From an uncultured Candidatus Saccharibacteria bacterium (GTDB lineage Bacteria > Patescibacteriota > Minisyncoccia > Phycocordibacterales > PALSA-1337), in assembly GCA_964646515.1 (NCBI GenBank), contig CAZYES010000001.1:7582-71581 (forward strand): a stretch of DNA of 64,000 nt, written 5' to 3'. The stretch's first letter is position 1, and each line of letters begins with the position of its first letter. The position numbers were made by a program, and so were the translations under genes. The notes beneath the pieces were generated by a model. That model was not told where the DNA came from. It searched no databases and saw only the letters and a list, made by a program, of their open reading frames with translations. Below are positions 18,624 to 37,725 of this stretch, piece by piece.

Positions 18624-18677
18624 TAGACCAATCAAAATGGCGTCCGTGTATGTGTTATAATTCTAGATGTTAATTCT

Positions 18678-18800
18678 ATGAGATCACGAAATGTCACATA
18701 TATTATATATGTAGTGTTGTTGCTAATCTTGGCTCTAATGACTTTTTCACTTCCGGGCATGAATACGATACTTTCGGGTAAGGTTCTCGGTGCTTACTAG
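18678..18800 (+). CDS. Candidate 40-aa single-pass membrane peptide
   Basis: ATG..TAG ORF absent from the track (<60 aa): MRSRNVTYIIYVVLLLILALMTFSLPGMNTILSGKVLGAY. Basic N-terminus followed by a hydrophobic helix. Confidence 0.25.
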   Translation: MRSRNVTYIIYVVLLLILALMTFSLPGMNTILSGKVLGAY

Positions 18801-18810
18801 ATTTGTAGCC

Positions 18811-18819
18811 TGTGGATAA
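18811..18819 (-). promoter_or_regulatory. Perfect DnaA-box sequence (TTATCCACA on the minus strand)
   Basis: Plus strand reads TGTGGATAA. Intergenic, 25 nt upstream of the extended -10 box TGATACAAT (18844-18852). Confidence 0.4.
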
Positions 18820-18974
18820 CTTGCTTTTTATATATTTCTAACGTGATACAATTACTTGGCTATCCAAGATATGATCTCTCCGGAGACGTATCTTTTCTGT
18901 TTATTATAGATTCAGTATTATTAAATTTCATGAGCACCTAGTTGTTGGTGTTCATGAGCTAACTTGCAACAAAA

Positions 18975-20426
18975 ATGAAATTAGACAAATCTTTTTTTGG
19001 AAAGGAATTCAAGTATATTCTCATTCTTACTATTTTGGCCTGGATGGTTTATTCATTGCCACAAGTCAAGGAGTCTATGAGTAGACCGGTTGTTAGCGAT
19101 CCTGCCACAAGCAGTGTGGCGGCAGTAGGAGCGACTTCTGTGGCAACATGCCCCGGGGGATATATCTGTATACCTATTTCTCGGGCCAATAGTTATTGTC
19201 CAGCAGGATATACATGTACTCAAACGGCGACTACTTCACAGCCGTATATTAGTCTGAACGCTTCCTCGACCAATATCGGTCTAGGCCAATCTACAGTCGT
19301 ATTTTGGTCTACGAACAATGTGACCAATTGTGTCGGCACACAGGATGGCGGTGACGAGAAAGTGCCAGCCATATTCAGTGCTCCAGCCACAAGGGGCTCA
19401 TTTACTGTTACTCCATCACAAAGTGTCACTTATACATTGGCATGTTCTTTTGGGACAGTAGGTAAGATGTCAAAGAGTGTGACCATAAATGTGGGGCAAT
19501 ATCAATCATCTTGGCCAAGTTCTATTTCTGCGACTATAAATAGTGCGACTCCACTCAAGGGTCTTGTTCAAATATCAGAAACAGTGCCTACTTCCAATGT
19601 GTCATTGATGGTCTTCAATTTGAAATCGACGAACGGAACATCAACGCTTCGACAGATTAAGCTAAGTGTACAGATGAGCACATCTTCTCCCGATGCACGT
19701 TTATTTAACAACATGAAACTTAAGGCAGGTGGCAATATTTACTCGGCATTTTATATATATGAGCATAATAATATTGCAGATGTTGTATTCTCTGATATGT
19801 CAATAACATTGCCAAGCAATGCCACTGTCGCATTTATCTTAACTGCCGACATAGCTGCGGATTTACAGCGCAGGTTTGACGGTGTTGGTATTCGTGCGTA
19901 TCTTCAAGCAGATAAATCAAGTATATATGCCGAATATGGTGCTCGACAGTTACCAGTAAATATGGCGAATATTACAGGGAATACTCTTACACTTGTTAGT
20001 AATTCTCCTATCGTTAGTAATTTGTCGACCTTGTATGGCGTTCCCACTACTAACGGATATGGCTCTACTACCCAAAAATTTTCTTTCCGCTTTGCGATCA
20101 CGGCTAATGCAGATCCGATCTATTTGTCGAGATCATTGAATAGCGCTATTAGTACTTCAACTGTGCCCAATCCTAGTAATATATTTATTTCCCCTATCAG
20201 CTTTTCTGATACTGATGCGAGTGGCGATGGCCCAGGATATTTATATATTGCTCCTGGCCAAACGAAGACCTTCACTGCTATCTACTCAGGTTCTGGTCAG
20301 AGTTCAGCAGTTGGTACGTTCAACGTAAGTGCTATCAACTACGGAACGTCATCAGATGCTCTTACCTCGGCATCTATAACTTCGTCGCAGATCACCAACG
20401 GATTAAAAGCAGTCTTGTTTCATTAG
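18975..20426 (+). CDS. Secreted or anchored hypothetical protein with paired CPxGYxC motifs and beta-sandwich-like repeats
   Basis: 483 aa; N-terminal hydrophobic segment; CPGGYICIP and CPAGYTCT motifs. Architecture resembles the ORF at 62234. Confidence 0.75.
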   Translation: MKLDKSFFGKEFKYILILTILAWMVYSLPQVKESMSRPVVSDPATSSVAAVGATSVATCPGGYICIPISRANSYCPAGYTCTQTATTSQPYISLNASSTNIGLGQSTVVFWSTNNVTNCVGTQDGGDEKVPAIFSAPATRGSFTVTPSQSVTYTLACSFGTVGKMSKSVTINVGQYQSSWPSSISATINSATPLKGLVQISETVPTSNVSLMVFNLKSTNGTSTLRQIKLSVQMSTSSPDARLFNNMKLKAGGNIYSAFYIYEHNNIADVVFSDMSITLPSNATVAFILTADIAADLQRRFDGVGIRAYLQADKSSIYAEYGARQLPVNMANITGNTLTLVSNSPIVSNLSTLYGVPTTNGYGSTTQKFSFRFAITANADPIYLSRSLNSAISTSTVPNPSNIFISPISFSDTDASGDGPGYLYIAPGQTKTFTAIYSGSGQSSAVGTFNVSAINYGTSSDALTSASITSSQITNGLKAVLFH

Positions 20427-20460
20427 TTATTAATTATTAGTCACGGTAATAACGAACAAA

Positions 20461-20490
20461 ATGCCTCTTTCAGGGGCATTTTGTCTATTT
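20461..20490 (+). terminator. Intrinsic terminator
   Basis: AUGCCUC / GGGGCAU stem (7 bp including one G-U), 5-nt loop, then TTTGTCTATTT, with an upstream A-tract. Confidence 0.65.
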
Positions 20491-20718
20491 GAGGGAAAAT
20501 TTGCGACTTTTTTGACTCTGTGCTAGTCTAGTTGGTACGCGCTATCCTGCGTTTTCATATTGTTCTTCATCAGTCAATTAACTTGAAATGATGGAGGAAT
20601 GTGGAGGTAACTATTAATAATTTATCCCCTTTTTGGGCATGTATCGTTAGTGTTCATACGCACAAGCATTAACGATAATGTCCAAGGACTGGGGCAATAA
20701 AATAATAACAAAAATATT

Positions 20719-21906
20719 ATGGCAGCAGAATTCAATCGTTCCAAGCCACATGTCAATGTAGGCACAATTGGTCACATTGACCACGGCAAATCTACTTTGA
20801 CCGCCGCTATTTTGGCTGTTCAAGCCAAAAAGGGGTTGGCCAAGATGAAAGCTTACGCGGATATTACCAAAGGTGGTACTGTACGCGATGCTACAAAGAC
20901 CGTTACTATTTCTCTCTCACACGTCGAGTATGAGAGTCCAAATCGTCACTATGCGCATATCGATTGTCCAGGGCACGCTGATTTTATAAAAAACATGATT
21001 ACTGGTGCCGCTCAGATGGACGGTGCCATCCTCGTAGTTTCTGCTACTGACGGTGTTATGCCACAGACTCGCGAACATGTACTTTTGGCTTTTCAAGTCG
21101 GAGTACCAAAGATCATTGTATTTTTGAACAAGTGTGATCTCGTTCCAGAAACCGATCTTATCGATCTCGTAGAGGAAGAAGTGCGTGAACTTCTCACCAA
21201 AAATAAGTTCGATGGAAAGAATACCCCGGTTATTAGAGGCTCGGCTTCCAAGGCTCTCGAGGGTGATGCGACTTGGTCTACCAAGATAGACGAACTCATG
21301 AATGCTCTCGATACCTATATTCCTACCCCCGTACGTGAAGTTGATAAACCTTTCCTTATGCCGATCGAAGACATCTTTTCTATCGAAGGTCGTGGGACAG
21401 TTGTCACCGGTCGCATCGAACGTGGCAGTATCAAACTCAATGACGAAGTAGAGATTGTCGGGTTCAAAGATACTACCAAGACAGTTGTCACTGGCATAGA
21501 AATGTTCAACAAATCTCTAAAGGAAGGTATGGCAGGGGATAATGCTGGTCTACTTCTCCGTGGTACAGCCAAGGATGCTGTCTCTCGCGGGCAAGTTCTC
21601 TCAAAACCAGGTTCAGTAAAACCGCATAGCGAGTTTGAGTCTGAAGTTTATGTTTTGAAGAAAGAAGAGGGCGGACGCCATACGCCGTTCTTTACTGGCT
21701 ATAAACCGCAGTTTTATATTCGTACTACTGATGTAACTGGTGAGGTGACTCTTCCTGAGAAAGTAGAAATGGTCATGCCTGGGGATACAGTTACGTTCAA
21801 GGTGAAATTGGTTGCTCCAGTTGCCCTAGAAGCACAACAGCGTTTTGCCGTTCGTGAAGGAGGCAAGACAGTCGGTGCCGGTGTCGTGACTAAGGTTATT
21901 GCCTAG
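20719..21906 (+). CDS. tuf: Elongation factor Tu
   Basis: 395 aa; [21 protein letters not shown] motifs. Confidence 0.97.
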
Positions 21907-21987: not shown

Positions 21988-22401
21988 ATGATAATGATAA
22001 GAAAAAATATGTCGACAACAAAAACAACAATCAAAAAAGACACAACTTCAAAGGCCAAATCGCCACGTGTCCGCAAAGCCAAGGTATCGGGCGAAGTACC
22101 GCATCTTCGTATCCGCGTGCGTGCATATGAGCACAAGATTCTCGACGCATCGCTCAAGCAAATCATGGATACCGCCAATCGCTATGATGCGGAGATCCAT
22201 GGTCCGGTGCCACTGCCGACGGAGATCAAGAAGTATACTGTCAATCGTTCTTCGTTTATTGACAAAAATTCTCGCGAGCAATTTGAGATGAGAGTACATA
22301 AACGACTGATCGATATTATCAATCCAAATGCCAAAGTTATCGAAGCGCTTACCAACATGAGCTTGCCGTCGGGAGTGAATATCGATGTAAAGATGATGTA
22401 A
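21988..22401 (+). CDS. rpsJ: 30S ribosomal protein S10 with a K/T-rich N-terminal extension
   Basis: Conserved core LRIRVRAYEHKILD...PLPTE begins about 35 aa into the ORF. Alternative starts at 21994 and 22009. Confidence 0.9.
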   Translation: MIMIRKNMSTTKTTIKKDTTSKAKSPRVRKAKVSGEVPHLRIRVRAYEHKILDASLKQIMDTANRYDAEIHGPVPLPTEIKKYTVNRSSFIDKNSREQFEMRVHKRLIDIINPNAKVIEALTNMSLPSGVNIDVKMM

Positions 22402-22402
22402 T

Positions 22403-23032
22403 ATGAAATTCATTTTAGGTAGAAAGCTGAATATGACACAGATTTTTGATGCTTCTGGAAAAGCTATTCCGGCCACGGTTGTTTCTGCGCAGGGGAATGT
22501 GGTGACCCAGGTCAAATCAAAAGAGGTTGATGGTTATGAGGCTATTCAAGTAGGTGAGGGATCTATCAATCCGGGTCGTATTAACAAGGCTCAAAAGGGG
22601 CACATGAAAGAACTCGGTTCATTTTCTTCACTCTGCGAATTTCGTACGGATGGTTGTGAGACATCGACCGAGGCCAAACCACTTTTCAAAGTCGGTGACA
22701 AAATAGACGTCTCCCAATTCAAAGTTGGCGATACTGTTACAATTAGGGCCGTGTCCAAGGGCAAAGGGTTTCAAGGTGTTGTGAAGAGACACGGTTTTGG
22801 TGGTGGTCCCAGATCTCACGGTCAGAAACATTCCGAGCGCGAGCCGGGCTCTATTGGTGGCGGTCTTCGTACGCATGTGCCTGTAGGTATGCGCATGGCG
22901 GGTAGGATGGGTAGCGATCGTGTGACCGTTGCCAATCTCAAGATTGCGCATATAGACCAAGAAGAAAATGTCATATATGTTTCCGGTGCCATTCCTGGAA
23001 AAAGGGGAACGTTGGTAGAAATTATAGGATAA
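22403..23032 (+). CDS. rplC: 50S ribosomal protein L3
   Basis: 209 aa; GKGFQGVVKRHGF motif. Confidence 0.95.
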   Translation: MKFILGRKLNMTQIFDASGKAIPATVVSAQGNVVTQVKSKEVDGYEAIQVGEGSINPGRINKAQKGHMKELGSFSSLCEFRTDGCETSTEAKPLFKVGDKIDVSQFKVGDTVTIRAVSKGKGFQGVVKRHGFGGGPRSHGQKHSEREPGSIGGGLRTHVPVGMRMAGRMGSDRVTVANLKIAHIDQEENVIYVSGAIPGKRGTLVEIIG

Positions 23033-23040: not shown

Positions 23041-24567
23041 ATGCGACGATTTAATGTTAAAAAGTTTATAAAAAACAAGTACTTTATTGGTGCGTTTGTT
23101 ATTGCTGTTATAGTTATTTGTTTTGTTTTTTGTAAGGGTGATTCTTCGTTGGGCTTCGAATTTGCAAAAGTGAAAACGGGTGATGTTGTCCAGAAAATTA
23201 GCGTTACTGGTAGAATTTTGGCTATGAATAACGCTGACTTGGCTTTTGGTAAATCCGGTATCGTTGCCATAGTTAACGTAAAAGTAGGTGATCATGTGAA
23301 AAAGGGAGAAGTTATTGCTTCATTGGATAGTTCTTCCGATAGGGCCAATCTAGCTTCTGCTCAAGCCAAACTTGATGATATGACGCGTAGTTTGAGGCCA
23401 GAGGAATCGCAAGTTGAGCAATCAAAAGTTGATCTTGCCAAAGTAGTACTTGATAATGCCAAGAGAGATGCTCTAGATGCTGTACGCGCAGGTTATGCTC
23501 AAGCGATGAATGCGGTTAATAATTATGTTGATAATTTTTTTACCAATCCTCAAAGCGTCAATCCCACGGTCAATATTTATACGCAATCTGATAATGAGAA
23601 AAATTCAGTTTCCTTAAAACGCATTGTAGTATCCGAATCTTTTGTTAAATGGAAAAAGGCTATTGATGTAACGACTAGTACAGATAACGTGTCCGATTTG
23701 GTCTCGCAGGCTAGTGGATATCTAGACCGTGTCAAGGATCTGATGGACACTATGTCTGTCGTGATCAGCAACTTAAATCCCGGCAATTCTGGCTTAGTCC
23801 AATCAGCGATCGATATGCATGTCTCCAATATGAATTCTGGTTTAATTGCCTTAAATCAAGCTATTACTTCTGTTTCTAGTGCTAGGGCGGAATTAGAGAG
23901 CGCTTCTTCTAGTTATGATCAAGCCAATGACAATTACACATTGAAGCTAGCGGGTAATTCTTCAGACTCCATCAAGGCTCAGTCTGCTTCATTAGATTCG
24001 TTCAGAGCAGAGTTAAATAAAGGCGTGATTTTTGCCCCCTTTGATGGGATTATTACGCGTGTTGAACCTACTATAGGTGAATTTGCCTCTTTGGGCCAGA
24101 CAGCGTTCAGTATCATTGAAGATAATGGTTACAAAATTGAAGCTTTTGTACCAGAGGCTGACATTGCCAAGATCAATTTGAACGATCTGGCCTCTACGAC
24201 TCTTGATGCTTACGGCCAGAATGTTGATTTTCCCTCGGTAGTTACCACGATTGATCCAGCAGAAACTATTCTTGAGGGAGTGCCTACATATAAAGTGACA
24301 TTGAGATTTATAGAAAGCGATTCTCGTCTTCGCCCGGGGATGACTGCTAATTTGGAGATTTTAACCGATGAACGTAGTAATGTGCTTATAGTTCCAGCGC
24401 GTGCGGTAGTCGATGACGATGGTTCCAAGACCGTACGTGTTTTGAACTCTGATGGTAAGACTTTCACCCCTGTTTCGGTGAGGGTTGGATTAAAGGGTTC
24501 AGACGGTGTGATTGAAATTATTTCTGGTGTCTCGGAGGGCGAAGAAGTAGTGACCTATATCAAATAA
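23041..24567 (+). CDS. HlyD/MacA-family periplasmic adaptor (membrane fusion protein)
   Basis: 508 aa; N-terminal TM, long coiled-coil-like region, barrel-sandwich motifs; precedes MacB-type ABC genes. Confidence 0.8.
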   Translation: MRRFNVKKFIKNKYFIGAFVIAVIVICFVFCKGDSSLGFEFAKVKTGDVVQKISVTGRILAMNNADLAFGKSGIVAIVNVKVGDHVKKGEVIASLDSSSDRANLASAQAKLDDMTRSLRPEESQVEQSKVDLAKVVLDNAKRDALDAVRAGYAQAMNAVNNYVDNFFTNPQSVNPTVNIYTQSDNEKNSVSLKRIVVSESFVKWKKAIDVTTSTDNVSDLVSQASGYLDRVKDLMDTMSVVISNLNPGNSGLVQSAIDMHVSNMNSGLIALNQAITSVSSARAELESASSSYDQANDNYTLKLAGNSSDSIKAQSASLDSFRAELNKGVIFAPFDGIITRVEPTIGEFASLGQTAFSIIEDNGYKIEAFVPEADIAKINLNDLASTTLDAYGQNVDFPSVVTTIDPAETILEGVPTYKVTLRFIESDSRLRPGMTANLEILTDERSNVLIVPARAVVDDDGSKTVRVLNSDGKTFTPVSVRVGLKGSDGVIEIISGVSEGEEVVTYIK

Positions 24568-24651
24568 ATGGTTTTGAAGACGTAATTACTCTGGGAAGGC
24601 CCCAATCGGGGGATATGGTATGGGTATTTCTGTCAAAATCCAATTAGCATT

Positions 24652-25368
24652 ATGAATATAATTGAAGTCACTAAATTAAAAAAATCATATCGCGATGGTT
24701 CCGATACTGTTGCCTTAGATGGCGTCACATTTTCCGTTAGAAAGGGTGAGTTTATGGCTATCATGGGACCATCTGGCAGTGGCAAGTCTACACTTTTGCA
24801 TATTCTTGGGCTTTTAGATTTACCAACTGGTGGGCAATATGTTTTTGATGGCAGGAATATTTCCACATATTCTGATTATGAACTAGCCAATTTGCGTAAT
24901 CGTAAGATTGGCTTTGTTTTTCAGATGTTCAATCTTTTACCACGTACATCCGTTTTGGCGAATGTAAAATTGCCTCTATACTATTCAGCTGTACCTGAAA
25001 GCGAGTGGGATGATAGGGCCAGAAAAGCGATAGAAGATGTGGGTCTTGGTCATCGTCTAGGCCATCAACCCTCTGAGCTTTCTGGTGGTGAAAGGCAACG
25101 TGTGGCAATAGCTAGGGCTTTGGTTACTAATCCGGAGATTATTTTTGCCGATGAGCCCACTGGCAATCTCGATTCCAAGTCAGGGAAGAAGGTTATGAGT
25201 ATCATTCAACATTTGAACGAAGAATATGGGAAAACCATTATTCTCATTACCCACGAGACTTCAACGGCTGAACATTCCGAACGGATTATTCGTCTATTAG
25301 ATGGTCAGATAGAGAGTGATGTCAAAGTGGCAAAGAGGCTGTCCGCTAGTGATGAGTTTGTGAAATGA
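24652..25368 (+). CDS. ABC transporter ATP-binding protein (MacB/LolD type)
   Basis: Walker [10 protein letters not shown], signature [15 protein letters not shown], Walker [13 protein letters not shown]. Confidence 0.9.
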
Positions 25369-25404
25369 TAAAATTACAACGTATAGTCTAATAATCAAGA
25401 AAAA

Positions 25405-26640
25405 ATGACTTGGCGACATCTGTTCAAAACTTCATTAAAGGGACTTACTACCAATAGATCCAGATCTTCTCTTACTATTCTTGGTATAGTTATTGGTATT
25501 ACGGCGATAATACTAGTGGTATCTTTGGGTGCTGGTGCCAAGGCGTTGATCTTGGGACAAGTACAGGGACTGGGCACGAATACGATTGCCATAATTCCTG
25601 GCAGGGAACCGACGGGGATGTCGGACATTTCTTCTTTATTCGGCGATTCATTGAAGGAAAAAGATTTGGTAGCACTTCGCAATAGGGCCAATGTTCCTGG
25701 ATTGAAGTCGATTATGCCAACGGTTATGGGGGCAGGTTCAGCCTCTTATGGTTCCAACACTTATCAAGTTTCAGTTTTCGGAGGCACCGAATTGTTGGCG
25801 GAGATCTTTGATTTGCACCCTAAGGGAGAATTTTTCACTACGGACGATGTTATCTCTAAGAATGACGTTGTAGTTTTGGGGTCAAAAATTAATGAAAAAC
25901 TTTTCAATTATGATAATGCCGTCGGACAGAAGTTAAAAATAAAGAACCGCAATTTCAAAGTCGTGGGTGTTCTGCCGGCCACTGGAGGTGGATCGCTTTT
26001 TAATTTTGATGATATGGTTCTGATGCCATATACTACCGCGCAAGATTATATTTTTGGGCAGAAATATTTCAGCAGGTTAATTATCCAAGCGATAGATGAC
26101 GCATCTGTGAAAGCTACGACTTATGATATTGAAGTAACACTTCGTGAATCTCACGGTATTACTGATCCTGACAAAGATGATTTCACAGTGCAGACTCAAC
26201 AAGATTTGGCAGATCGACTTTCAACTATTACTAATATCTTGACTTACTTTTTGGTAGCGGTGGCTTCAATCGCTCTTTTCGTGGGCGGTGTTGGTATCAT
26301 GAACATCATGCTTGTGGCTGTGACCGAGCGTACGCGCGAAATCGGTTTACGCAAAGCCTTGGGCGCAACAGATAAGGATATTTTAAAACAATTTCTTTTA
26401 GAGGCGGTTCTTTTGACAATCATTGGTGGCATTATAGGCATAGTTCTCGGTGCGTCCCTAGCATTTTTAACTGCTATAATATTATCTAAAGGTCTTAGTG
26501 TTAATTGGCAATTTATTTTTCCATGGGGCGGTGCGGCTCTCGGTTTTTGTGTCTCTGCAATAATTGGTCTTGTTTTTGGCGGTTATCCCGCTAAACAAGC
26601 TTCAAAGAAAAGCCCTATTGAAGCACTACGATATGAATAG
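25405..26640 (+). CDS. ABC transporter permease (MacB/FtsX family)
   Basis: 411 aa; N-terminal TM, large extracytoplasmic domain, C-terminal FtsX-like 3-TM bundle (REIGLRKALGA). Confidence 0.85.
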   Translation: MTWRHLFKTSLKGLTTNRSRSSLTILGIVIGITAIILVVSLGAGAKALILGQVQGLGTNTIAIIPGREPTGMSDISSLFGDSLKEKDLVALRNRANVPGLKSIMPTVMGAGSASYGSNTYQVSVFGGTELLAEIFDLHPKGEFFTTDDVISKNDVVVLGSKINEKLFNYDNAVGQKLKIKNRNFKVVGVLPATGGGSLFNFDDMVLMPYTTAQDYIFGQKYFSRLIIQAIDDASVKATTYDIEVTLRESHGITDPDKDDFTVQTQQDLADRLSTITNILTYFLVAVASIALFVGGVGIMNIMLVAVTERTREIGLRKALGATDKDILKQFLLEAVLLTIIGGIIGIVLGASLAFLTAIILSKGLSVNWQFIFPWGGAALGFCVSAIIGLVFGGYPAKQASKKSPIEALRYE

Positions 26641-26694: not shown

Positions 26695-26715
26695 GAATCT
26701 CTCGAGAGATTTTGT
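26695..26715 (+). terminator. Perfect 16-nt palindrome followed by a T-rich tract
   Basis: AATCTCTCGAGAGATT (26695-26710), then TTGTTATT; lies downstream of the permease stop. Confidence 0.4.
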
Positions 26716-26781
26716 TATTATTGATTAGCTGGGATGTATATAGGCATTTGACTTCGAGGGGTTGCTTTGTTAGCATACCCC

Positions 26782-26812
26782 ATAAGCTCCGCGGAGCTTA
26801 TTTTCTTCATTT
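26782..26812 (+). promoter_or_regulatory. Perfect 20-nt palindrome plus T-run, 33 nt upstream of rpsS (terminator or attenuator-like)
   Basis: ATAAGCTCCG/CGGAGCTTAT (26782-26801) followed by TTTCTTCATTTTC. Confidence 0.4.
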
Positions 26813-26833: not shown

Positions 26834-27184
26834 ATGCCACGATCACTAAAAAAAGGGCCATATCTTGATGAGAATCTTTTGAAGAAGATTTCTGGCAAAA
26901 AGCCTGCAACAACTGGTACCATCAAGACCTGGGCGCGTCGTTCACAAATATCGCCGGAAATGGTCGGCTTTACCTTTGGTGTACACAATGGCAAGACGCA
27001 TATAGATGTATTTATAACCGAGGACATGGTTGGGCACCGCCTCGGTGAATTTTCGCCAACTAGAAAGTTCTTGCGTCATGGAGGCAAGATGCAGAAGGAG
27101 ATCGAAATGAAGGCCAAAGAAGCTGAAATGGCCGCGGCCAAATCTGCAAAAGAAGCCGCAACTGCTGTAGCTACCAAAAAATAA
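26834..27184 (+). CDS. rpsS: 30S ribosomal protein S19 with a K/A/E-rich C-terminal tail
   Basis: [19 protein letters not shown] and VHNGK motifs. Confidence 0.95.
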
Positions 27185-29710: not shown

Positions 29711-29929
29711 ATGCATGTAAAAAAAGGAGATATTGTTCAAATATTATCAGGTGACAATAAAGGTAAGACGGGCAAGATCGTTAAGGTATTTCCGCGTGAA
29801 AATAAAATAGTCGTAGAAGGCGTGAATGTTATCAAAAAACATCAACGCGCAAGAAAAGAAGGCCAAAAAGGTCAGACGGTAGAGATAGCGATGCCTTTTG
29901 ATGCTTCAAAAGTCAAAATTAAAGTCTAA
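29711..29929 (+). CDS. rplX: 50S ribosomal protein L24
   Basis: MHVKKGDIVQILSGDNKGKTGKI (KOW motif). The ORF track starts further upstream, inside rplN. Confidence 0.9.
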   Translation: MHVKKGDIVQILSGDNKGKTGKIVKVFPRENKIVVEGVNVIKKHQRARKEGQKGQTVEIAMPFDASKVKIKV

Positions 29930-29934: not shown

Positions 29935-30489
29935 ATGTCATACAAAACAATTTACGAACTCAATAAGAACTCTTTTGAAACTTTGAAGACTCCTCTGGCT
30001 ATAGAGAATCCTATGCAGACGCCAAAGTTGGTGAAAGTGGTTGTTTCCAGTAGTTTTGGTTCGATCAAAGATAAAAAGAAGATCGAACTTATTGCCGATA
30101 GATTGGCGAAAATCACTGGGCAGAAACCTGCTGTTCGTGTAGCCAAGAAAGCTATTGCCACATTCAAGACTCGCACGGGCGATCCCATTGGTTATCAAGT
30201 AACTCTACGTGGCAAGCGGATGACAGAATTTTTAGATCGCCTGATTCATATCGCTCTGCCTCGTACCAAAGATTTTCGAGGACTTTCTAGAGATTCAGTC
30301 GATGCCATGGGTAATTTTACTATAGGTATAAAAGAGCATACGATTTTTGCAGAGACTGCTGACGAGGATCTAAAAGATGTTTTTGGCATGGCCGTTACTA
30401 TCGTTACTACCTCTAGCGACAAAAAATCTACTTTAGCGTTTCTCGAGTGTATAGGTTTGCCCCTAAAAAGGGTAGGAGCAAAGAGATAA
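29935..30489 (+). CDS. rplE: 50S ribosomal protein L5
   Basis: 184 aa; LPRTKDFRGL and FGMAVTIVTT motifs. Confidence 0.95.
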   Translation: MSYKTIYELNKNSFETLKTPLAIENPMQTPKLVKVVVSSSFGSIKDKKKIELIADRLAKITGQKPAVRVAKKAIATFKTRTGDPIGYQVTLRGKRMTEFLDRLIHIALPRTKDFRGLSRDSVDAMGNFTIGIKEHTIFAETADEDLKDVFGMAVTIVTTSSDKKSTLAFLECIGLPLKRVGAKR

Positions 30490-30570: not shown

Positions 30571-31401
30571 ATGATTATTGATGGCCGTGTAACTAGAGAA
30601 GCTTTGTTTCCAGGACTTGAGCGAAGAGCCCAGGCGCTTTCTTTTAGACCGACATTGGCGATCGTCCAAGTGGGCAATAGACCTGACTCCACAGCTTTTA
30701 TTCGTGCCAAGAGGGCGTTTGCCAAGAGGGTTGGTGTCAACGAGAAACATATACAGGTGCCAGAAAATATTTCACAGAACGAACTTATTGATATTATAAA
30801 GAAATGTAATATTGATCTTTCTATTCATGGGATAATAATACAGTTACCTTTGCCTATACATATTGGAAGGGACACGGTAATCGATGCCATAGATCCGAAA
30901 AAAGATGCCGACGGTTTGACTGCTACCAATGTGAAACTTTGGTTAGAAGGCAGAGAAGATTGCATAATGCCCGCTACGGCTCGAGGTATCAAACATTTAC
31001 TGAATTATTACAAGATAGATCTATTTGGCAAGCACGTAACAGTTGTCGGTCGCTCGATGCTTGTAGGTAAGCCGATTGTCGCTATGTGCTTGAATGAAAA
31101 TGCCACAGTTACAGTTGGTCACAGCAAAACCAAACATCTTGCAGAGGAGACAAAAAATGCGGATGTTTTGGTTGTGGCTGTTGGAAAACCGGGTTTAATT
31201 GATGAAAAGTATGTAAAGAAGGGGCAAGTTGTTATTGATGTTGGCATTAGTCGCACCCAGGACAACAAACTTATTGGTGATGTTGATTTTAATTCAGTTT
31301 CAAAGAAAGTATCTGCCATTACTCCCGTACCAGGTGGCGTTGGTCCCATGACGGTATTTTCATTATTTGAGAATCTTATTGGTCTATGTGAGAAATGGTA
31401 G
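30571..31401 (+). CDS. folD: Bifunctional methylenetetrahydrofolate dehydrogenase/cyclohydrolase
   Basis: IIDGR N-terminus, GIIIQLPLP, VVGRSMLVGKP, TPVPGGVGPMT motifs. Confidence 0.93.
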   Translation: MIIDGRVTREALFPGLERRAQALSFRPTLAIVQVGNRPDSTAFIRAKRAFAKRVGVNEKHIQVPENISQNELIDIIKKCNIDLSIHGIIIQLPLPIHIGRDTVIDAIDPKKDADGLTATNVKLWLEGREDCIMPATARGIKHLLNYYKIDLFGKHVTVVGRSMLVGKPIVAMCLNENATVTVGHSKTKHLAEETKNADVLVVAVGKPGLIDEKYVKKGQVVIDVGISRTQDNKLIGDVDFNSVSKKVSAITPVPGGVGPMTVFSLFENLIGLCEKW

Positions 31402-31480
31402 AGGCCTATATTGGCTTATTTGCTCTATAATCAATAAGACGATACCATGTATTTATTATTAATAATTTATATTAAACAAT

Positions 31481-32266
31481 ATGAATAACATACCTGAAAA
31501 TTTTTGGAAGTTAGCTCGAGTCCTGACTGTTGTTTTGATGGTACTTCTGGCTGTAGTGGCGATAAAAGAATTCAAAGCTATTGGTTACGTTGGTGCCAAT
31601 CCAAATATGATGAATACGATTACGGTAGATGGCAGTGGAGATGTCGTGGCAATGCCTGATCTTGCAACCTTTTCATTTACGGTGACTGAAAATTCCAAGA
31701 CTGTAGCGGAGGCCCAAGCCAAGCAAGCAACCAAGGTTAACGCTGCTCTGAAAGCTGTACGGGATAGTGGTGTGGCTGATAAAGACATAAAAACACAGTC
31801 TTACAGTATAAATCCGCATTATGAATACCAAAATAGTGTTTGTACAGCCTATAGTTGTCCTCCTTCAAAGTCTATTTTGACTGGGTACGATGTGAGTCAA
31901 AGTATTCTAGTTAAGGTGCGCGATCTTGAAAAAGCCGGAGCGTTGTTTACTTCAATAGGTTCGCTCGGCGTAGACAATGTTGGCGGTCTTGATTTCTCTG
32001 TTGATGGTCCAGACACCATAAAAGCTCAAGCTCGTAGGGAGGCGATCAAGGACGCGCAAGCCAAAGCCGATGAATTGGCAGAGCAACTAGGCGTACGTTT
32101 GGTCCGTATTACCAGTTTCTACGAATCCGGCAACCCCACTCCGATAGTCTATGGTATGGGCGGAGCAAAAGATGAAGTAGTTAGAGTGCAAACAGCCACG
32201 CCGGAAGTACCAACAGGAGAGCAAAAAGTGACGAGTAATGTGACGATTACTTACGAAATAAAATAG
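31481..32266 (+). CDS. SIMPL/DUF541 family secreted protein
   Basis: 261 aa; N-terminal TM/signal; family-like pattern (TQSYSINP, coiled C-terminal region with AKADELA). Confidence 0.7.
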   Translation: MNNIPENFWKLARVLTVVLMVLLAVVAIKEFKAIGYVGANPNMMNTITVDGSGDVVAMPDLATFSFTVTENSKTVAEAQAKQATKVNAALKAVRDSGVADKDIKTQSYSINPHYEYQNSVCTAYSCPPSKSILTGYDVSQSILVKVRDLEKAGALFTSIGSLGVDNVGGLDFSVDGPDTIKAQARREAIKDAQAKADELAEQLGVRLVRITSFYESGNPTPIVYGMGGAKDEVVRVQTATPEVPTGEQKVTSNVTITYEIK

Positions 32267-32379
32267 ATCTGGCTTTGAGATCACGGCCGATTTAATGTGA
32301 GCAGTAGTTGCCAATAAGGTGGTTGTTATTTTTGCGTAGACTGTGTATATTTTGGGGTAGAGCTTTGAAATTTTGAATT

Positions 32380-32913
32380 ATGAAAACTATATATGTCTAC
32401 TTTGGCAATGTTGCTACGCTTAGTCAGACACAAAGAGAGGTTCTTGATCAACTCCAACGTCACTTGGAATATAGTCTGAATAAAGGTTGTATCCCAGATA
32501 ATACGTACTGTGAGTTAGTAATGGCCAATTCAGTACTTGTTAGTGGCGGTGGTTCTAATGGTCAATATCAATCTTGGCAAACCAATCATATTGTTTGTGA
32601 CGGCCTGATTGTTGTGCCAGTGTGTCCGTGTGATATAAAGACGGTGATCGAAGCCGAGGTCGCTGTTTCTGGGATCACTCCTCCTGATGCCGTAGTCGAT
32701 GATTACGGTCGCTTCAAGAGGCCGATACCTGTAGTAGATTTCTGTTTTGGCAGAAAGGCCAATGCGATGATCGAAATCCATGCCAATAGGGATTTCCATT
32801 TACAGTGCAAGGCTAGTTCGTTTGAACTTGTACCTGAGGCAAATGTTGAAAAATTGGCAGAAGAAGTTGCCCAAAAGTATCGCAGGTTTGCTGACTTCTT
32901 CTGTGCTTGCTGA
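32380..32913 (+). CDS. Hypothetical Cys-rich protein (orphan)
   Basis: 177-aa ORF with about 10 Cys (VCPCD, C-terminal FFCAC), no motif I recognise, and its own strong terminator. Confidence 0.55.
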   Translation: MKTIYVYFGNVATLSQTQREVLDQLQRHLEYSLNKGCIPDNTYCELVMANSVLVSGGGSNGQYQSWQTNHIVCDGLIVVPVCPCDIKTVIEAEVAVSGITPPDAVVDDYGRFKRPIPVVDFCFGRKANAMIEIHANRDFHLQCKASSFELVPEANVEKLAEEVAQKYRRFADFFCAC

Positions 32914-32932
32914 TATAGGCACCTGTCTCCTG

Positions 32933-32962
32933 AGCGCGTTTGTGATAACGCGCTTTTTGTTT
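32933..32962 (+). terminator. Intrinsic terminator
   Basis: Perfect 8-bp stem AGCGCGTT / AACGCGCT, 6-nt loop, then TTTTTGTTTG. Confidence 0.75.
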
Positions 32963-33050
32963 GATACTCTGGATGTGGCTGTCTGGGTGGTGTCTGATTG
33001 GTTCCGGATACATTTTGTATTCATTAACAAATCTAACCCAACACATCTCC

Positions 33051-33079
33051 TTGACTTTGTAGTTAAGGGGGTGTATATT
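33051..33079 (+). promoter_or_regulatory. Sigma70-type promoter for secE-nusG-rplK
   Basis: TTGACT (33051-33056), 17-nt spacer, TATATT (33074-33079). Confidence 0.6.
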
Positions 33080-33098
33080 TCTCCACAAGTTATCCCCA
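33079..33098 (+). promoter_or_regulatory. Two tandem near-consensus DnaA-box-like 9-mers at the predicted transcription start
   Basis: TTCTCCACA (33079-33087) and TTATCCCCA (33090-33098), each 1 mismatch from TTATCCACA. The second overlaps a CCCC/GGGG hairpin plus T6. Confidence 0.3.
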
Positions 33099-33128
33099 GC
33101 AGGGGTTTTTTAATAAAATAGAAATATC

Positions 33129-33305
33129 ATGAAAATCATCGAGTATATCAAAGAGACAAGATCGGAAATGAGCCATGTTAATTGGCCGACTAGACAACAG
33201 ACTATCAGATTTACTGCTCTTGTTATTATTGTCTCATTGGCAGTGGCGGCTTTGCTTGGGGTCTCGGATTTTGTGTTCTCAAAGCTACTCACATTACTAT
33301 TCTAA
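33129..33305 (+). CDS. secE: Preprotein translocase subunit SecE
   Basis: 58-aa ORF not in the track: MKIIEYIKETRSEMSHVNWPTRQQTIRFTALVIIVSLAVAALLGVSDFVFSKLLTLLF. The E..KV.WP motif, a single TM and the position before nusG all fit SecE. Confidence 0.85.
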   Translation: MKIIEYIKETRSEMSHVNWPTRQQTIRFTALVIIVSLAVAALLGVSDFVFSKLLTLLF

Positions 33306-33353
33306 TTAAAAATACAAGCTTACGTTTTGAGTCTTTGTATACTTATCTTATAT

Positions 33354-33899
33354 ATGACCAAACAACATACAACAGGCGAGCGGAATTGGTACGCGATACA
33401 CACATACGCGGGTTATGAGAATGCTGTTGCCCGTAATCTCAAACAACGTATCGAGTCTTTGGGTATGGAGGACAAGATTTTTAATGTAATCGTGCCGACT
33501 GAAAAAAAATTCAAGATCAAAAATGGCAAACGAGTAGAGGAAGAAGAGAAAATCTATCCCGGTTATGTCTTGGTAGAAATGATTGTTACCGATGATTCTT
33601 GGTATATAGTACGCAATACTCCAAGGGTTACAGGTTTTGTCGGTGCCGGTATATCGCCAGTACCACTTGATGATCGTGAGGTGGCTACCTTATTTGATCG
33701 TATGCAAAAAGGTAATACAGAACATTCTATTGATCTTATCCAAGGAGACTTGGTCAAAGTTGCCGATGGCCCATTTAAGGATTTTGAAGGCAAAGTCGCT
33801 GAAGTTGATACGCAGAGAGGCAAGATCAAAGTTCTAGTATCGATGTTCGGCAGAGAAACACCCGTGGAGCTCGACTTCTTGCAAGTTAAAAAAGTTTAA
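33354..33899 (+). CDS. nusG: Transcription termination/antitermination factor NusG
   Basis: NWYAIHTYAGYENAV NGN domain; KOW motif GDLVKVADGPFKDFEG. ORF track starts at upstream TTG 33327. Confidence 0.93.
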   Translation: MTKQHTTGERNWYAIHTYAGYENAVARNLKQRIESLGMEDKIFNVIVPTEKKFKIKNGKRVEEEEKIYPGYVLVEMIVTDDSWYIVRNTPRVTGFVGAGISPVPLDDREVATLFDRMQKGNTEHSIDLIQGDLVKVADGPFKDFEGKVAEVDTQRGKIKVLVSMFGRETPVELDFLQVKKV

Positions 33900-33916
33900 T
33901 ATAATATCCACTTACT

Positions 33917-34339
33917 ATGGCAAAAAAAATTATCAAGAAAGTAAAGGTTATTGCTCCAGCAGGGAAAGCTACCCCAGCCCCACCATTGGGGCCAACGCTT
34001 GGTCAAGCGGGTGTCAACATAGGTGACTTTACCAAGAAGTTTAATGATGCTACCAAAACAATGGTTGGTGACATGATACCTGTGCTCATCACTGTATATG
34101 AGGACCGTACATATAGTTTTGTTTTGAAGACTCCTCCTGCTTCAGCCCTTATTTTAAAGGCGCTAAAACAAGAAAAAGGCTCAGGTAAACCGAATACCAA
34201 GAAGATTGGCTCAATTACCAAGGCACAACTCAAGGATATTGCTGAGAAAAAGATGCAAGATCTGAACGCAAATACAGTAGAGATGGCGATGAAAATAGTG
34301 TCGGGATCTGCCAAATCCATGGGGGTAGAGATAAAATAG
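33917..34339 (+). CDS. rplK: 50S ribosomal protein L11
   Basis: [22 protein letters not shown] motif. Confidence 0.96.
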
Positions 34340-34361
34340 AGTGGATTTTTACTATTCTTTT

Positions 34362-34871
34362 TTAGTGATTTATAGCAACTTCATACTCCAATAGAATTGT
34401 TCCACTTTCTGTTTTTTGCAGGTTGATTAATTTCAGCTTAAAATCCATCTCTTTCTGAAATAATTTTATTCCGCTTCCGAAAATAACTGGCTCGATTGTC
34501 AGGTACATTTTCTTTACCAGTCCAGACTCCATAAACATCGTATAGATCTGTGAACCACCACAGATAGCGATTTCTTTGTAACCACGCGCTTCAAGATCTT
34601 TGATAAGGTCAATGGGTGATTTGGCGGTGATTTCGACACCGGCCGGTAGATCATGTAGAGGCGTTGGTGAATATACTATATTTAGTCGATCTTTCAGGGG
34701 TTTATTGAGAGTGAGCCAAGTATTCTGGCCCATGACGACAACGCCCGCGCGTTTAGTTATTTCCACAAATCTTTTCTTGTCTTCTTTACTTGTCCACGTG
34801 GCGGTATGGGTAGAGTTTTTGCCAATATATCCGTCTGCGGTTAAGGCGGCGGTTATGAAACAAGTGATCAT
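34362..34871 (-). CDS. Dihydrofolate reductase family protein
   Basis: 169 aa. The patterns ITAALTADGYIG, VVVMGQNTW and KPLKDRLNIVYS align with DHFR/RibD-C family motifs. Confidence 0.7.
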   Translation of the reverse strand: MITCFITAALTADGYIGKNSTHTATWTSKEDKKRFVEITKRAGVVVMGQNTWLTLNKPLKDRLNIVYSPTPLHDLPAGVEITAKSPIDLIKDLEARGYKEIAICGGSQIYTMFMESGLVKKMYLTIEPVIFGSGIKLFQKEMDFKLKLINLQKTESGTILLEYEVAINH

Positions 34872-34875
34872 GTAA

Positions 34876-35505
34876 TTATATTTTATGTCTTTCTTTTAGT
34901 GTTTTTATATCTCCTTTGTTGATTAGATCAATTTCGTCCTGCTCCTCCATCATTATGCCTTCGATAATGTCTTTTTTGTGATACTTGCTTGGTTTTGGTT
35001 TTACTTCGTTTTTTAATTCCTCGAATACTACTTGGCAAAGGCGCTCGCCGGGGAAGAGGCGAACAGCCTGAGAGCGAGTGTTGTTTCTTATGGGAAGTAC
35101 CAATTGACCATCGTAGCCCGCATCAATAATGCCCGTTAGATCTAGCGATAGACCTTTTCTATTGGTTGATGAGCGGGGATACAGGACGCCCATAATATCG
35201 TTCGGCATCTTTATCGATTCAAGTGTCGAGACTAATATATATTCACTGGGTAAAAGGTCAAAATATTGGCCCTGTTCCAGTTCCACGACGTCGAAATATT
35301 CATGATTACGTTTGTCAAAATGTGTTATATCGAGCGATTCGCGTCCGCGTGGGGTCATATGCCACATTTTTGGCAACATGAACGTGTAGCCCAAACGGAG
35401 GTCTACAGAGTGTTCTTGTAATTGGAATTGGTCGAGATTGGGCTTGAAAATGAGGTTGCCAGATTCCACGAGTTTCGTTATTTGTTTTTTAGTAATTATT
35501 GACAT
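34876..35505 (-). CDS. dCTP deaminase/dUTPase-superfamily protein lacking the Dcd catalytic Glu (probable dNTP pyrophosphatase)
   Basis: Dcd-like N-terminus (SVDLRLG) and PRSSTNRKGL. IIDAGYDGQLVLPIRNN aligns with E. coli Dcd RIDPGWSGCIVLEFYN, putting Pro at the Glu138 position, and resembles dUTPase motif 3. Confidence 0.7.
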   Translation of the reverse strand: MSIITKKQITKLVESGNLIFKPNLDQFQLQEHSVDLRLGYTFMLPKMWHMTPRGRESLDITHFDKRNHEYFDVVELEQGQYFDLLPSEYILVSTLESIKMPNDIMGVLYPRSSTNRKGLSLDLTGIIDAGYDGQLVLPIRNNTRSQAVRLFPGERLCQVVFEELKNEVKPKPSKYHKKDIIEGIMMEEQDEIDLINKGDIKTLKERHKI

Positions 35506-35551
35506 GACGGAGATATGAGATTGAAATTGGGAATAAAGACAAAATTTTTAA

Positions 35552-36388
35552 TCAAAGTATTAATTTCAGGCCCTTTATTGGTTCCATAGGATTATACTGC
35601 TTTGAAAGGTTTTCTACTATCTCGTCCAAAAGTTTTGGGTCTTTCTCTTCTGCTCTGTCAAATGAGTCCTGTGGAAGTCTCAGTTCGATCATCGGGTGAT
35701 CGTTGGTCCTTTGGATCAATTCTTGGGCACCTTCATAATGTGAGTCATAAATGTGCGCATTGGAGATTGAATGAGAGTAAATACCTGTTTTAACCCCAAG
35801 TTTTTGTGCTAGCATACATTGGAGTAGCGCAAAACCTGATACATCCGCTGAGAAACCAAGCATTACGTCGTTGGAGCGAACGATATTATGCAGATGTAGA
35901 CGTCCGGCGACAATATTAACTGTAAATGTGTAGGGACAAGGTACATTTTTCTTTTTTATCAAAGAAAGACCGTCTTGGGCTGGATCCCAAGTGACAACCA
36001 CGGCTTGTCTGGAGCTCGATTCTTTTTCTAACAATTTAACGAGCAGGCCCAGTTGGTCACGTCCGAAATGCTTCCTCCATCGGTATCCGTAGGCGACGGT
36101 AACGACGTCTCCTGGATTGGTAAAGTCATCCCAAATGTGTGTATAGTTGCGTAGAAAATCTTCCGGCTTCCTGGACCCGGAAATGAACCAGATCTGTTCG
36201 GCGACGAACATCTTGATAGGTGATTTTCGCAAAGTGAGTATGGGGAAACCATCTTTCTCTATATCTAGTTGGAAATGCACGCCGACCTTGACTCTGGTTT
36301 CATGCCCCGTACGTTCGCTAAATTCAACCATGCCATTTTTCATAATATCATGTACGATGTTTTGGTATATTTGGTCGAACTTGGTCAT
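35552..36388 (-). CDS. Thymidylate synthase / dCMP hydroxymethylase family enzyme with Asp at the pyrimidine-specificity position
   Basis: Collinear with ThyA (ERTGHET, DGFPILT, IWD, YGYRWR, catalytic Cys in VPCPYTF, AHIY). RSNDVMLGFSADVSGFALL aligns with ThyA RSCDVFLGLPFNIASYALL. Confidence 0.8.
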   Translation of the reverse strand: MTKFDQIYQNIVHDIMKNGMVEFSERTGHETRVKVGVHFQLDIEKDGFPILTLRKSPIKMFVAEQIWFISGSRKPEDFLRNYTHIWDDFTNPGDVVTVAYGYRWRKHFGRDQLGLLVKLLEKESSSRQAVVVTWDPAQDGLSLIKKKNVPCPYTFTVNIVAGRLHLHNIVRSNDVMLGFSADVSGFALLQCMLAQKLGVKTGIYSHSISNAHIYDSHYEGAQELIQRTNDHPMIELRLPQDSFDRAEEKDPKLLDEIVENLSKQYNPMEPIKGLKLIL

Positions 36389-37719: not shown

Positions 37720-37725
37720 TTACTT

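Follow-up and report, generated by a model that had tools for sequence, protein, structure and literature searches.

Among the described systems closest to the locus discussed here are the S10-spc-alpha ribosomal-protein supercluster and the MacB-type exporters. In its canonical form, the S10 operon is a contiguous run of rpsJ-rplC-rplD-rplW-rplB-rpsS-rplV-rpsC-rplP-rpmC-rpsQ, and the spc operon consists of rplN-rplX-rplE followed by rpsN-rpsH-rplF-rplR-rpsE-(rpmD)-rplO-secY. MacB-type pumps, on the other hand, have been described as the MacAB-TolC systems of Escherichia coli and Acinetobacter baumannii and as the MacAB-like pumps of Gram-positive bacteria, namely Streptococcus pneumoniae Spr0693-0694-0695 and Bacillus subtilis YknXYZ. 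The latter two are not known to be linked to ribosomal-protein genes. Here, we discuss a stretch of 64,000 nucleotides (the window; contig CAZYES010000001.1, positions 7,582 to 71,581) in which the genes of such a pump stand inside the S10 operon. This modular rearrangement of the ribosomal supercluster, with its conserved MacB-type pump, is real and fixed in the population. We consider it likely that in this uncultivated Paceibacteria (Parcubacteria) bacterium the supercluster consists of autonomous modules, each with its own promoter, whose order has been reshuffled, that the pump has long been resident and that rplD-rplW-rplB moved away.

The window was annotated from a listing of its open reading frames (ORFs), profile searches with Pfam and NCBIfam, and tblastn with E. 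coli proteins across the 64 kb. The listing and the profile searches place all genes from rpsL to rplK on the + strand. The order given in an earlier note, which had been made from the sequence alone (rpsJ-rplC, the pump, rpsS to rplE and then folD), is confirmed by the Pfam and NCBIfam families (Table 1), and so is, from the sequence, its gap of 8 nucleotides (nt) between the rplC stop and the adaptor ATG. A spacer of 193 nt separates the permease gene from rpsS. Neither operon thus has its canonical form. Three pump genes split rplC from rpsS, and folD, a SIMPL-domain gene, an ORF of 177 amino acids (aa), secE, nusG, and rplK stand after rplE, where rpsN to secY would be expected. As the note had said, L4, L23, L2, and the rpsN to secY block are not in the window: no tblastn match was obtained with the E. 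coli queries for rplD, rplW, rplB, rpsN, rpsH, rplF, rplR, rpsE, rplO, secY, or rpoA over the whole 64 kb. They are likewise not in the extensions of the contig, which cover 7.6 kb upstream (clpP, tig, an H+-pyrophosphatase gene, nusA, and pilus genes) and about 15 kb downstream.

Compared with the canonical S10-spc-alpha cluster, the order inside the modules is the same (rpsJ-rplC; rplD-rplW-rplB; rpsS to rplE; rpsN to secY-adk-map). Unlike the canonical cluster, the modules are distributed over at least three loci, with the pump and folD at the two breaks in the window; rpsS and rplD carry predicted promoters and leaders of their own, and ndk rather than infA-rpmJ-rpsM follows map.

The earlier note had proposed to look for both missing blocks elsewhere in the genome, and both were found on other contigs of the same sample series. 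The L2 of the related locus L103 served as a query, and members of the matching clusters were compared with the window proteins by their fingerprint of sources and contig counts. Inside a 90% cluster, this led to protein P0297, whose contigs (L110-L114) stem from JGI 3300076261 and from Logan SRR12447079, 081, 097, and 101. Their gene order is rpiB-rpe-tkt-tkt-59 aa ORF-rplD-rplW-rplB-hisK (antisense)-uvrB-response regulator-uvrA-uvrC-ddl, of which rplD-rplW-rplB-hisK is the exact segment that lies between the permease gene and rpsS in the relatives L195, L103, and L100, antisense kinase included. Sample SRR12447079 holds both the window arrangement and this locus. In composition, the rplD contig resembles the window closely (G+C 0.412 against 0.416; tetranucleotide r = 0.969); the two halves of the window compare at 0.975, and the nearest relatives compare with the window at 0.88-0.90. 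The P0297 protein also shares its 90% cluster with what is inferred to be the L2 of L195, whose permease, too, is the nearest among the relatives. Another L2, P0221, had been picked by contig count and was rejected, as it belongs to a different organism with canonical order.

The same fingerprint approach with L6 led to P0439, on contigs from JGI 3300076252, 3300076266, 3300076261, and 3300076591. These read ruvX-…-pilM-…-tRNA-Arg(TCT)-rpsN-rpsH-rplF-rplR-rpsE-rplO-secY-adk-map-ndk-… and correlate with the window at r = 0.973-0.978; the G+C of the two complementary loci is 0.412-0.422, next to the 0.416 of the window. The three genes absent from the window are present on another contig of the same population: in this species, the rplD-rplW-rplB-hisK (antisense) module, with its own predicted promoter, is now found between a transketolase gene and uvrB. 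The rpsN-rpsH-rplF-rplR-rpsE-rplO-secY-adk-map module, likewise with a predicted promoter, lies beside tRNA-Arg on a third contig. A further detachment is that of rplJ-rplL from rplK; in the extended contig, rplL-rplJ are found on the opposite strand about 15 kb downstream, ~33 kb beyond rplK (L011 16704-17614). In total, the 16 commonly concatenated ribosomal proteins are split 10, 2, and 4 over the three loci.

Some details of the rpsN locus deserve mention in their own right. In L199 (8967-9260), tRNA-Arg(TCT) lies directly upstream of the promoter of the rpsN module, and a second copy of its 19-nt 3' end, CGATTCCTCCCGAGGGGAC, stands ~200 nt downstream, on the far side of a G+C-rich stretch; the pair resembles an att-type scar left by an integrative element. 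Strains differ ~5 kb upstream of rpsH. There, L198 and L200 (2205-4712) carry a REP_ORF2-G2P replication protein and a serine recombinase, and other strains (L199) carry rpsT, a SocA_Panacea gene, and tRNA-Arg(GCG) at the same site; the ruvX call is 139 aa in the strains with the element versus 270 aa. Genes resembling pilM stand upstream of the rpsN module in L199.

To place the pump in its phylogenetic surroundings, relatives were sampled rather than censused, and both the genome scan (with L3) and the metagenome scan (with the permease) cover the matches listed only. The L3 scan covers one genome per species (80 loci listed) and is without the closer relatives that were reached later through protein look-ups; the permease scan (600 matches listed) served for context examples only (L115, L135, and L140), the organism's own contigs not being among them. 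The nearest L3 loci listed are only 69-70% identical and are titled Parcubacteria, Paceibacterota, Taylorbacteria, or Patescibacteria. L4 directly follows L3 in all but one of the 80 loci, the exception being a contig that ends at L3. The canonical L3-L4 synteny that the earlier note took as its reference holds for these loci; the nearest relatives carry the pump between L3 and L4. When the permease served as protein query, more than 120 clusters matched at 74-81% identity, and all those named by source are labelled Paceibacterota, Taylorbacteria, or Patescibacteria.

The arrangements in these relatives are informative. L195, the nearest (permease 81%), reads adaptor-ATPase-permease-82 nt-L4-L23-L2-hisK (antisense)-140 aa ORF-S19…L5. 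L103 (permease 80%) has S10-L3-adaptor-two ORFs-ATPase-permease-two ORFs-L4-L23-L2-hisK (antisense)-S19…L5 and then an HTH_38 gene, and L100 (permease 78%) has S10-L3-ORF-pump-ORF-L4-L23-L2-hisK (antisense)-S19…L5…S8-L6-L18-S5. In L115 (permease 79%), the pump and an antisense gene of 424 aa precede S19…L5-S14…secY, the locus not covering the upstream side, and in L016 the order is L3-L4-L23-L2-adaptor-…-ATPase-…-permease. More distant pumps, at 60-63% identity (L135 and L140), adjoin folD-SIMPL(-secE-nusG-rplK), and those at 54-59% identity have no ribosomal neighbours. Linkage of pump and cluster, seen in 6 of the 7 lineages inspected, is common but not obligatory. The pump does lie where rplD-rplW-rplB normally lie, as the earlier note had it, but it is no replacement for them, because both coexist in L195, L103, L100, and L016. 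Since the nearest relatives have the pump together with L4-L23-L2, the pump is the older feature, and the later event in this species is the removal of rplD-rplW-rplB-hisK from the site.

Divergence and composition point in the same direction. Between the window and L195, identity is 81% for the permease, 79% for the ATPase, 79% for S3, 88% for L16, and 79% for L5, the adaptor reaching only 55%; across relatives, the permease (78-81%) and ATPase (76-79%) stand next to L3 (73-75%) and S3 (79-80%). The G+C content of the pump tracks that of the host from 0.35 to 0.58 over six lineages and is 0.410 in the window, where the ribosomal block has 0.412. The hallmarks of a mobile island or transposon are missing. 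In agreement with the earlier note, no integrase or transposase gene occurs between 20.4 and 31.5 kb of the window, repeats flanking the pump, direct or inverted, are at chance level only, and composition does not deviate. Matching composition and the lack of such repeats and genes argue for an old, vertically inherited resident. In this sub-clade, the MacB-type exporter has long stood beside the S10 cluster and been passed on vertically; in the nearest relatives it lies between rplC and rplD.

A few features of the relatives' pump neighbourhoods stand apart from this question. About 1.5 kb downstream of its pump, L016 has an ORF (19844-20615) that resembles a reverse transcriptase of the group II intron or retron type and contains a YADD motif, and the L016 metagenome-assembled genome (MAG) has frameshifted tuf and adaptor genes, probably from long-read errors. 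Two small membrane proteins, one of 161-174 aa with an HEAGH motif and one of ~140 aa, accompany the L2/hisK/pump neighbourhood in relatives (L015 12841-14598; L100 11229-11753; L103 11439-11924; L195 6636-7058); their genes are in no fetched locus of this organism.

The loosening of the cluster is not confined to this species. Among the Paceibacteria loci listed in the L3 scan, the gap between L2 and S19 is usually 0.5-7.4 kb and filled with unrelated genes on either strand, and that between L5 and S14 is often more than 1 kb, compared with 10-140 nt for both gaps in the listed loci from outside Patescibacteria. Canonical S10/spc order is truly broken in the window, and the break is less singular than the earlier note had supposed, most of the Paceibacteria relatives sampled carrying 0.5-7.4 kb of unrelated genes at L2|S19 and L5|S14. 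Individual loci show other variants: in the Elulimicrobiales MAG L062 (10001-17210), L2 is followed by S14-S8-L6-L18-S5-secY and the whole S19…L5 block is absent, and in L019 (10001-15705) two ORFs separate L2 from folD.

How could such modules be autonomous? The predicted rpsS promoter has a -35 box TTGACT, a 17-nt spacer, and an extended -10 box TGTTAGCAT, and no other site in the 64 kb fits the motif TTGAC-N13-17-TGnTAnnAT. A promoter-leader element of the form TTGACTTC-N15-TGTTAnnAT, followed after 5-9 nt by a hairpin with a GCTC-N4-GAGC core and TATTTT, precedes both rplD and rpsS in L195, L103, and L100, rpsS in the window (26748-26801), and rplD in L110, with no other match in these loci. 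The hairpin in the window has an 8-bp stem and a CGCG loop before its T-tract, begins 5 nt past the -10 box, lies 33 nt before rpsS, and folds at -9.8 kcal/mol (z = -3.7; 0 of 200 shuffles as stable). It is the second of two perfect palindromes that the earlier note had placed between pump and rpsS. This one lies exactly at 26782-26801 and the other at 26696-26711, one base off the 26695-26710 given. The second is not a junction scar but by sequence and position the clade-wide rpsS leader hairpin that follows the predicted extended -10 box.

This was surveyed by counting hairpins of at least 5 bp with a T-tract within 110 nt upstream of a gene, with controls gene by gene and by phylum. Upstream of rpsS, 29 of 46 Patescibacteria loci have such a hairpin and 0 of 24 loci of other bacteria do; by the same count, L4, L22, S3, L16, L14, L5, L2, and S10 give 0-2 loci of roughly 40-57 each and rplC 12 of 56. 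The rpsS stems vary in sequence yet remain complementary (AAGCTC/GAGCTT, CCCGC/GCGGG, GCGCC/GGCGC, GACCC/GGGTT). Because variable loops put the stems out of register in a MAFFT alignment of the 29 leaders, hairpins were detected per sequence instead.

As for its function, the hairpin would probably insulate the rpsS unit from upstream read-through and form the 5'-terminal stem-loop of its mRNA. Its stem, T-tract, and stable fold fit the pattern of an intrinsic terminator; located 5 nt past a conserved -10 box, it could equally be a 5' leader element. In having a short G+C-containing hairpin and a U-tract ~5-9 nt from the -10 box, and in conserving structure rather than sequence, the element resembles the 5' stabiliser hairpins of Gram-positive mRNAs and the leader attenuators of ribosomal-protein operons. 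Unlike the described leaders, the rpsS leader in the window has no Rfam counterpart (0 matches at gathering score in the whole window, described ribosomal-protein leaders included), and a role as terminator, stabiliser, or operator is putative. The rplD stem is shorter, with 4 bp (GCTC-N4-GAGC), and a DNA operator is possible there. A layout like that of the rpsS leader is found upstream of tuf, where a hairpin follows 7 nt past a predicted -10 box and is itself followed by a T-tract, the hairpin alone being no more stable than shuffles. We propose this site (20501-20552) as the start of a tuf-rpsJ-rplC-pump transcription unit.

The junction between rplC and the pump is one point in which this species differs from its relatives. 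In L103, L100, and L016, rplC is followed by a terminator, and a 'GCTATAATAAT' -10 box stands ~10 nt before the adaptor ATG. Both are gone here, leaving 8 nt, with AGGA 11 nt upstream, and the junction in the window contains neither a terminator nor a recognisable promoter. Transcription of the pump together with tuf-rpsJ-rplC, and translational coupling to these genes, are therefore probable; the predicted unit would end at the 26696-26711 palindrome, which we take for a weak terminator-like hairpin after the pump. In the relatives, the short distance from the conserved 'GCTATAATAAT' to the ATG, ~8-12 nt (L103 6166-6277; L100 7549-7641; L016 13230-13296), suggests that the pump mRNA there is leaderless or nearly so.

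The three pump proteins are readily classified. The adaptor has the lipoyl, beta-barrel, and hairpin domains of the RND_mfp/HlyD family and an N-terminal membrane anchor; it scores 166 bits against a TIGR01730 cut-off of 94.9 (NCBIfam), and among solved structures E. coli MacA (5nik_D) is the nearest. The ATPase, a polypeptide of its own, belongs to the MacB/LolD/FtsE group, and its translation has intact ATP motifs (Walker A, the signature motif, and a Walker B-type FADEPT; ABC_tran E = 7e-34). Its best NCBIfam matches are LolD, the MacB N-terminal domain, DarD, YbbA, and FtsE, the first three below equivalog cut-offs. The permease is of type VII, with an extracytoplasmic MacB_PCD domain (2e-42, residues 21-239) and a C-terminal FtsX transmembrane domain (6e-22, residues 285-404) in Pfam, and it aligns over its full length with the MacB structures 5gko, 5nik, and 5lil (E ~1e-54); the S. 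pneumoniae permease 5xu1_M (E = 4e-38) and the YknZ domain 5f9q are further matches in the PDB. Judged by these domains, the pump is an exporter of the MacB-type (type VII) ATP-binding cassette (ABC) family with a MacA-like adaptor. The term 'tripartite' used in the earlier note fits the three genes for adaptor, ATPase, and permease and does not fit otherwise, as no TolC-like third component is annotated in the window or the fetched loci, where not every ORF was scanned.

With the MacAB-TolC systems of E. coli and A. baumannii, the pump has in common a MacB_PCD and FtsX permease that aligns end to end with solved structures, a MacA-related adaptor, and an ATPase of the MacB/LolD/FtsE group. 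It differs in that ATPase and permease, fused in MacB, are separate genes, that the adaptor is 508 aa long instead of ~370 aa, and that no TolC was seen. Orthology to E. coli MacAB was rejected, with scores far under the NCBIfam equivalog cut-offs (permease 235 bits against 966 for NF007826; adaptor 83 against 342 for NF008606) and the ATPase unfused. An outer membrane is generally considered absent from the group to which the organism belongs. The Gram-positive MacAB-like pumps (Spr0693-0694-0695 and YknXYZ) have the same layout of three genes, with an adaptor, a separate ATPase, and a MacB-type permease, and likewise work in cells that lack an outer membrane. In sequence, however, the pump described here is nearer to proteobacterial MacB, and adaptors of the Gram-positive pumps are not among the structure matches of the adaptor at E up to 1e-3. 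By gene layout, these three-gene pumps (5xu1; YknXYZ) are the closest architectural analogues, and the exporter most likely works as they do; by analogy, the substrate would leave the membrane at its outer face and be expelled through the adaptor channel, driven by ATP-powered mechanotransmission. The substrate itself cannot be inferred from homology.

Taking these observations together, we propose the following history, starting from an arrangement of the L195/L103/L100 type. The promoter-bearing rplD-rplW-rplB-hisK module would have left its site, the rpsN…secY module would have become detached and come to lie beside tRNA-Arg, folD-SIMPL-secE-nusG-rplK would have come to follow rplE, and the pump would have lost its own terminator and promoter. 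The ribosomal genes could move without loss of expression because rplD and rpsS each probably had a promoter and leader of their own in the ancestor. The two similar promoter-leader elements would also have formed direct repeats bracketing the departed segment, so that recombination between them is a plausible route of excision.

Several points weigh against this account. No repeats or scars were seen at the donor or acceptor site, no target-site duplications were found around the relocated block in L110 or around the pump in the window, and a hybrid rplD/rpsS leader, sought in the window as a recombination scar, was not found, the leader looking purely of the rpsS type. The palindrome after the pump folds at -8.1 kcal/mol (z = -1.05), indistinguishable from shuffles. 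In L202 (permease 80%), the pump lies between serpin and TrmB genes, with no ribosomal gene within 10 kb. The promoters, start sites, co-transcription of pump and rplC, and roles of both hairpins are predictions from sequence, and the three loci, which are on separate contigs, are assigned to one genome because they co-occur, agree in composition, complement one another in gene content, and are placed consistently by phylogeny.

How does this account compare with the alternatives? The most mundane is an artefact of assembly or binning that produced chimeric junctions at rplC|adaptor, permease|rpsS, and rplE|folD, a suspicion that the metagenomic origin of the sequence and the near-universal canonical order (L4 directly after L3 in 79 of the 80 loci listed with L3) would justify. 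However, at least 24 contigs encode these very adaptor and L3 proteins among the same neighbours and stem from separate assemblies at JGI (3300076256, a 79-kb contig; 3300076591; others) and in Logan (SRR12447077, 079, 083, 087, 103, and 105). As this order is common to many samples and two independent pipelines across all three joins, as the complementary L4-L23-L2 and S14-secY loci are found without L3 or S19 next to them, each on at least 23-24 contigs, and as relatives show intermediate arrangements, this reading is essentially refuted. One might also ask whether those complementary contigs come from another co-occurring Paceibacteria population, the organism having its own copies elsewhere, for they were picked by their fingerprint of sources and contig counts and not by linkage or coverage. 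There is only a slim chance of this, given tetranucleotide correlations (0.969-0.978) at the level found within the window and well above those of the nearest relatives (0.88-0.90), a G+C of 0.412-0.422 against 0.416, samples in common (SRR12447079, 3300076261, 3300076266, and 3300076591), an L2 that clusters at 90% or more with that inferred for the relative nearest by permease, and a gene content that is exactly complementary, with no L3 upstream, no S19 downstream, and hisK kept. Nor does a recent horizontal insertion, in which a pump island landed in the S10 operon and deleted rplD-rplW-rplB, fare better. Genes for macB and ribosomal proteins are among the regions of Patescibacteria genomes predicted to be horizontally acquired, MacB-type genes being reported in predicted genomic islands (PMC12455944), and the position of the pump in L202, as well as on the other side of L4-L23-L2 in L016, indicates that the pump module can move. 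Against an insertion stand the lack of any integrase, transposase, or flanking repeat, a pump G+C that equals that of its host in six lineages between 35 and 58%, a divergence that parallels that of the ribosomal proteins, and the joint presence of pump and L4-L23-L2 in the closest relatives; moreover, the supposedly deleted genes exist elsewhere, still next to their ancestral antisense neighbour hisK. We hold such an insertion to be very improbable. A full-text literature search found no description of S10-cluster disruption or of MacB pump linkage in Patescibacteria, and the sample accessions turned up in no paper.

A different kind of question is whether the pump is kept in the ribosomal unit, and here even fused to it, because its expression must scale with ribosome synthesis, for which the export of an essential envelope component or protection against ribosome-targeting compounds might be the reason. 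Conservation of permease and ATPase at the level of ribosomal proteins across genera, residence in the cluster in 6 of the 7 lineages inspected, and the 8-nt junction with its lost terminator and promoter would all suit such functional coupling. On the other hand, the pump of the relatives is a terminator-bounded unit of its own, its position within the cluster varies and in L202 is elsewhere altogether, conserved neighbourhoods can persist in small genomes without a functional cause, and no substrate can be read from homology. Coupling as the explanation therefore seems doubtful to us. The bolder combination, in which Paceibacteria clusters are autonomous cassettes of promoter and hairpin/U-tract, with the leader as a possible new cis-regulatory element, and ribosome synthesis is really coupled to essential export, is also rather unlikely. 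If it held, the leader could, for example, be an autoregulatory attenuator or an operator for the rpsS and rplD units, and the near-universal conservation of the exporter at ribosomal level, with its fusion to rpsJ-rplC, could reflect such coupling in minimal cells. Reshuffling of separately promoted modules around a resident pump thus is the reading that we prefer.

Table 1. Positions of the pump, the surrounding ribosomal genes, and the predicted regulatory features in the window
Feature	Coordinates	Strand	Basis
Promoter-like site: -35 TTGCGA (20501-20506), extended -10 TGCTAGTCT (20521-20529), hairpin (20537-20552)	20501..20552	+	Pattern scan, manual reading
tuf (EF-Tu)	20719..21906	+	GTP_EFTU domains (Pfam) in the identical L001 gene; 86-93% identity to relatives
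rpsJ (S10)	21988..22401	+	Pfam Ribosomal_S10 at residues 41-135; start call in public assemblies 21994
rplC (L3)	22403..23032	+	Pfam Ribosomal_L3; tblastn with E. coli L3, E = 1e-38
HlyD/MacA-type adaptor, 508 aa	23041..24567	+	Pfam HlyD_3, HlyD_D23, Biotin_lipoyl_2; TIGR01730
ABC ATPase, MacB/LolD/FtsE group	24652..25368	+	Pfam ABC_tran
MacB-type permease, 411 aa	25405..26640	+	Pfam MacB_PCD and FtsX
First palindrome AATCTCTCGAGAGATT, then TTGTTATTATT	26696..26711	+	Sequence
rpsS promoter (predicted)	26748..26776	+	Promoter scan
Second palindrome ATAAGCTCCGCGGAGCTTAT, predicted rpsS leader hairpin	26782..26801	+	Sequence, folding
rpsS-rplV-rpsC-rplP-rpmC-rpsQ-rplN-rplX-rplE	26834..30489	+	Pfam, NCBIfam, tblastn
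rpsS	26834..27184	+	Pfam/NCBIfam
rplX	29711..29929	+	Pfam/NCBIfam
rplE	29935..30489	+	Pfam/NCBIfam
folD, SIMPL-domain protein, 177-aa unknown, secE, nusG, rplK	30571..34339	+	NCBIfam, Pfam
folD	30571..31401	+	NCBIfam

The remainder of the window offers some further observations. Upstream of the locus, rpsL, rpsG, and fusA precede an ORF of 483 aa without family match (18975-20426), and then tuf follows. The fusA|tuf junction (18624-20718) is thus also broken, here by this secreted-looking ORF and in relatives by different inserts, namely a relB/yafQ toxin-antitoxin pair (L103), ORFs of 504 and 152 aa (L106), and an ORF of 1394 aa (L100), so that it looks like a further insertion hotspot. On the other side (33917-34871), the gene after rplK is one for dihydrofolate reductase on the opposite strand, where rplA-rplJ-rplL would be expected. 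No rplA was seen in any fetched locus, which is consistent with the description of OD1-L1 Parcubacteria as lacking L1 (PMC5220378). A compact set of folate and thymidylate genes surrounds secE-nusG-rplK (30571-31401 and 34362-38943): folD, the genes for dihydrofolate reductase and dCTP deaminase and thyA (these three on the - strand), a dCMP deaminase gene, tmk, and glyA. Several ribosomal proteins have basic or Ala/Lys-rich extensions compared with E. coli (21988-22110, 27086-27184, and 27521-27607), with ~40 extra basic residues at the N-terminus of S10 and C-terminal tails on S19 and L22; S5 in L199 has 252 aa. At the start of the window (310-6163), a set resembling type IV pilus or type II secretion genes comprises a T2SSE ATPase, a T2SSF platform protein, and several ORFs like N-methyl pseudopilins.

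The consequences reach from genome analysis to cell biology. As the earlier note had foreseen, the arrangement matters for concatenated ribosomal-protein phylogenies: pipelines that assume 16 syntenic ribosomal proteins on one scaffold would obtain only 10 of the 16 usual markers from the main contig, and quality or binning checks could wrongly call the genome incomplete or chimeric. The marker problem is wider than one genome, since many Paceibacteria relatives have kilobases of unrelated genes at L2|S19 and L5|S14. The locus also offers a natural example of how an 'unbreakable' operon may be dismantled, with internal promoters and leaders arising first and the then self-sufficient modules becoming movable. 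Finally, the conserved rpsS/rplD leader hairpin and the highly conserved MacB-type exporter are testable features of the cell biology of the candidate phyla radiation.

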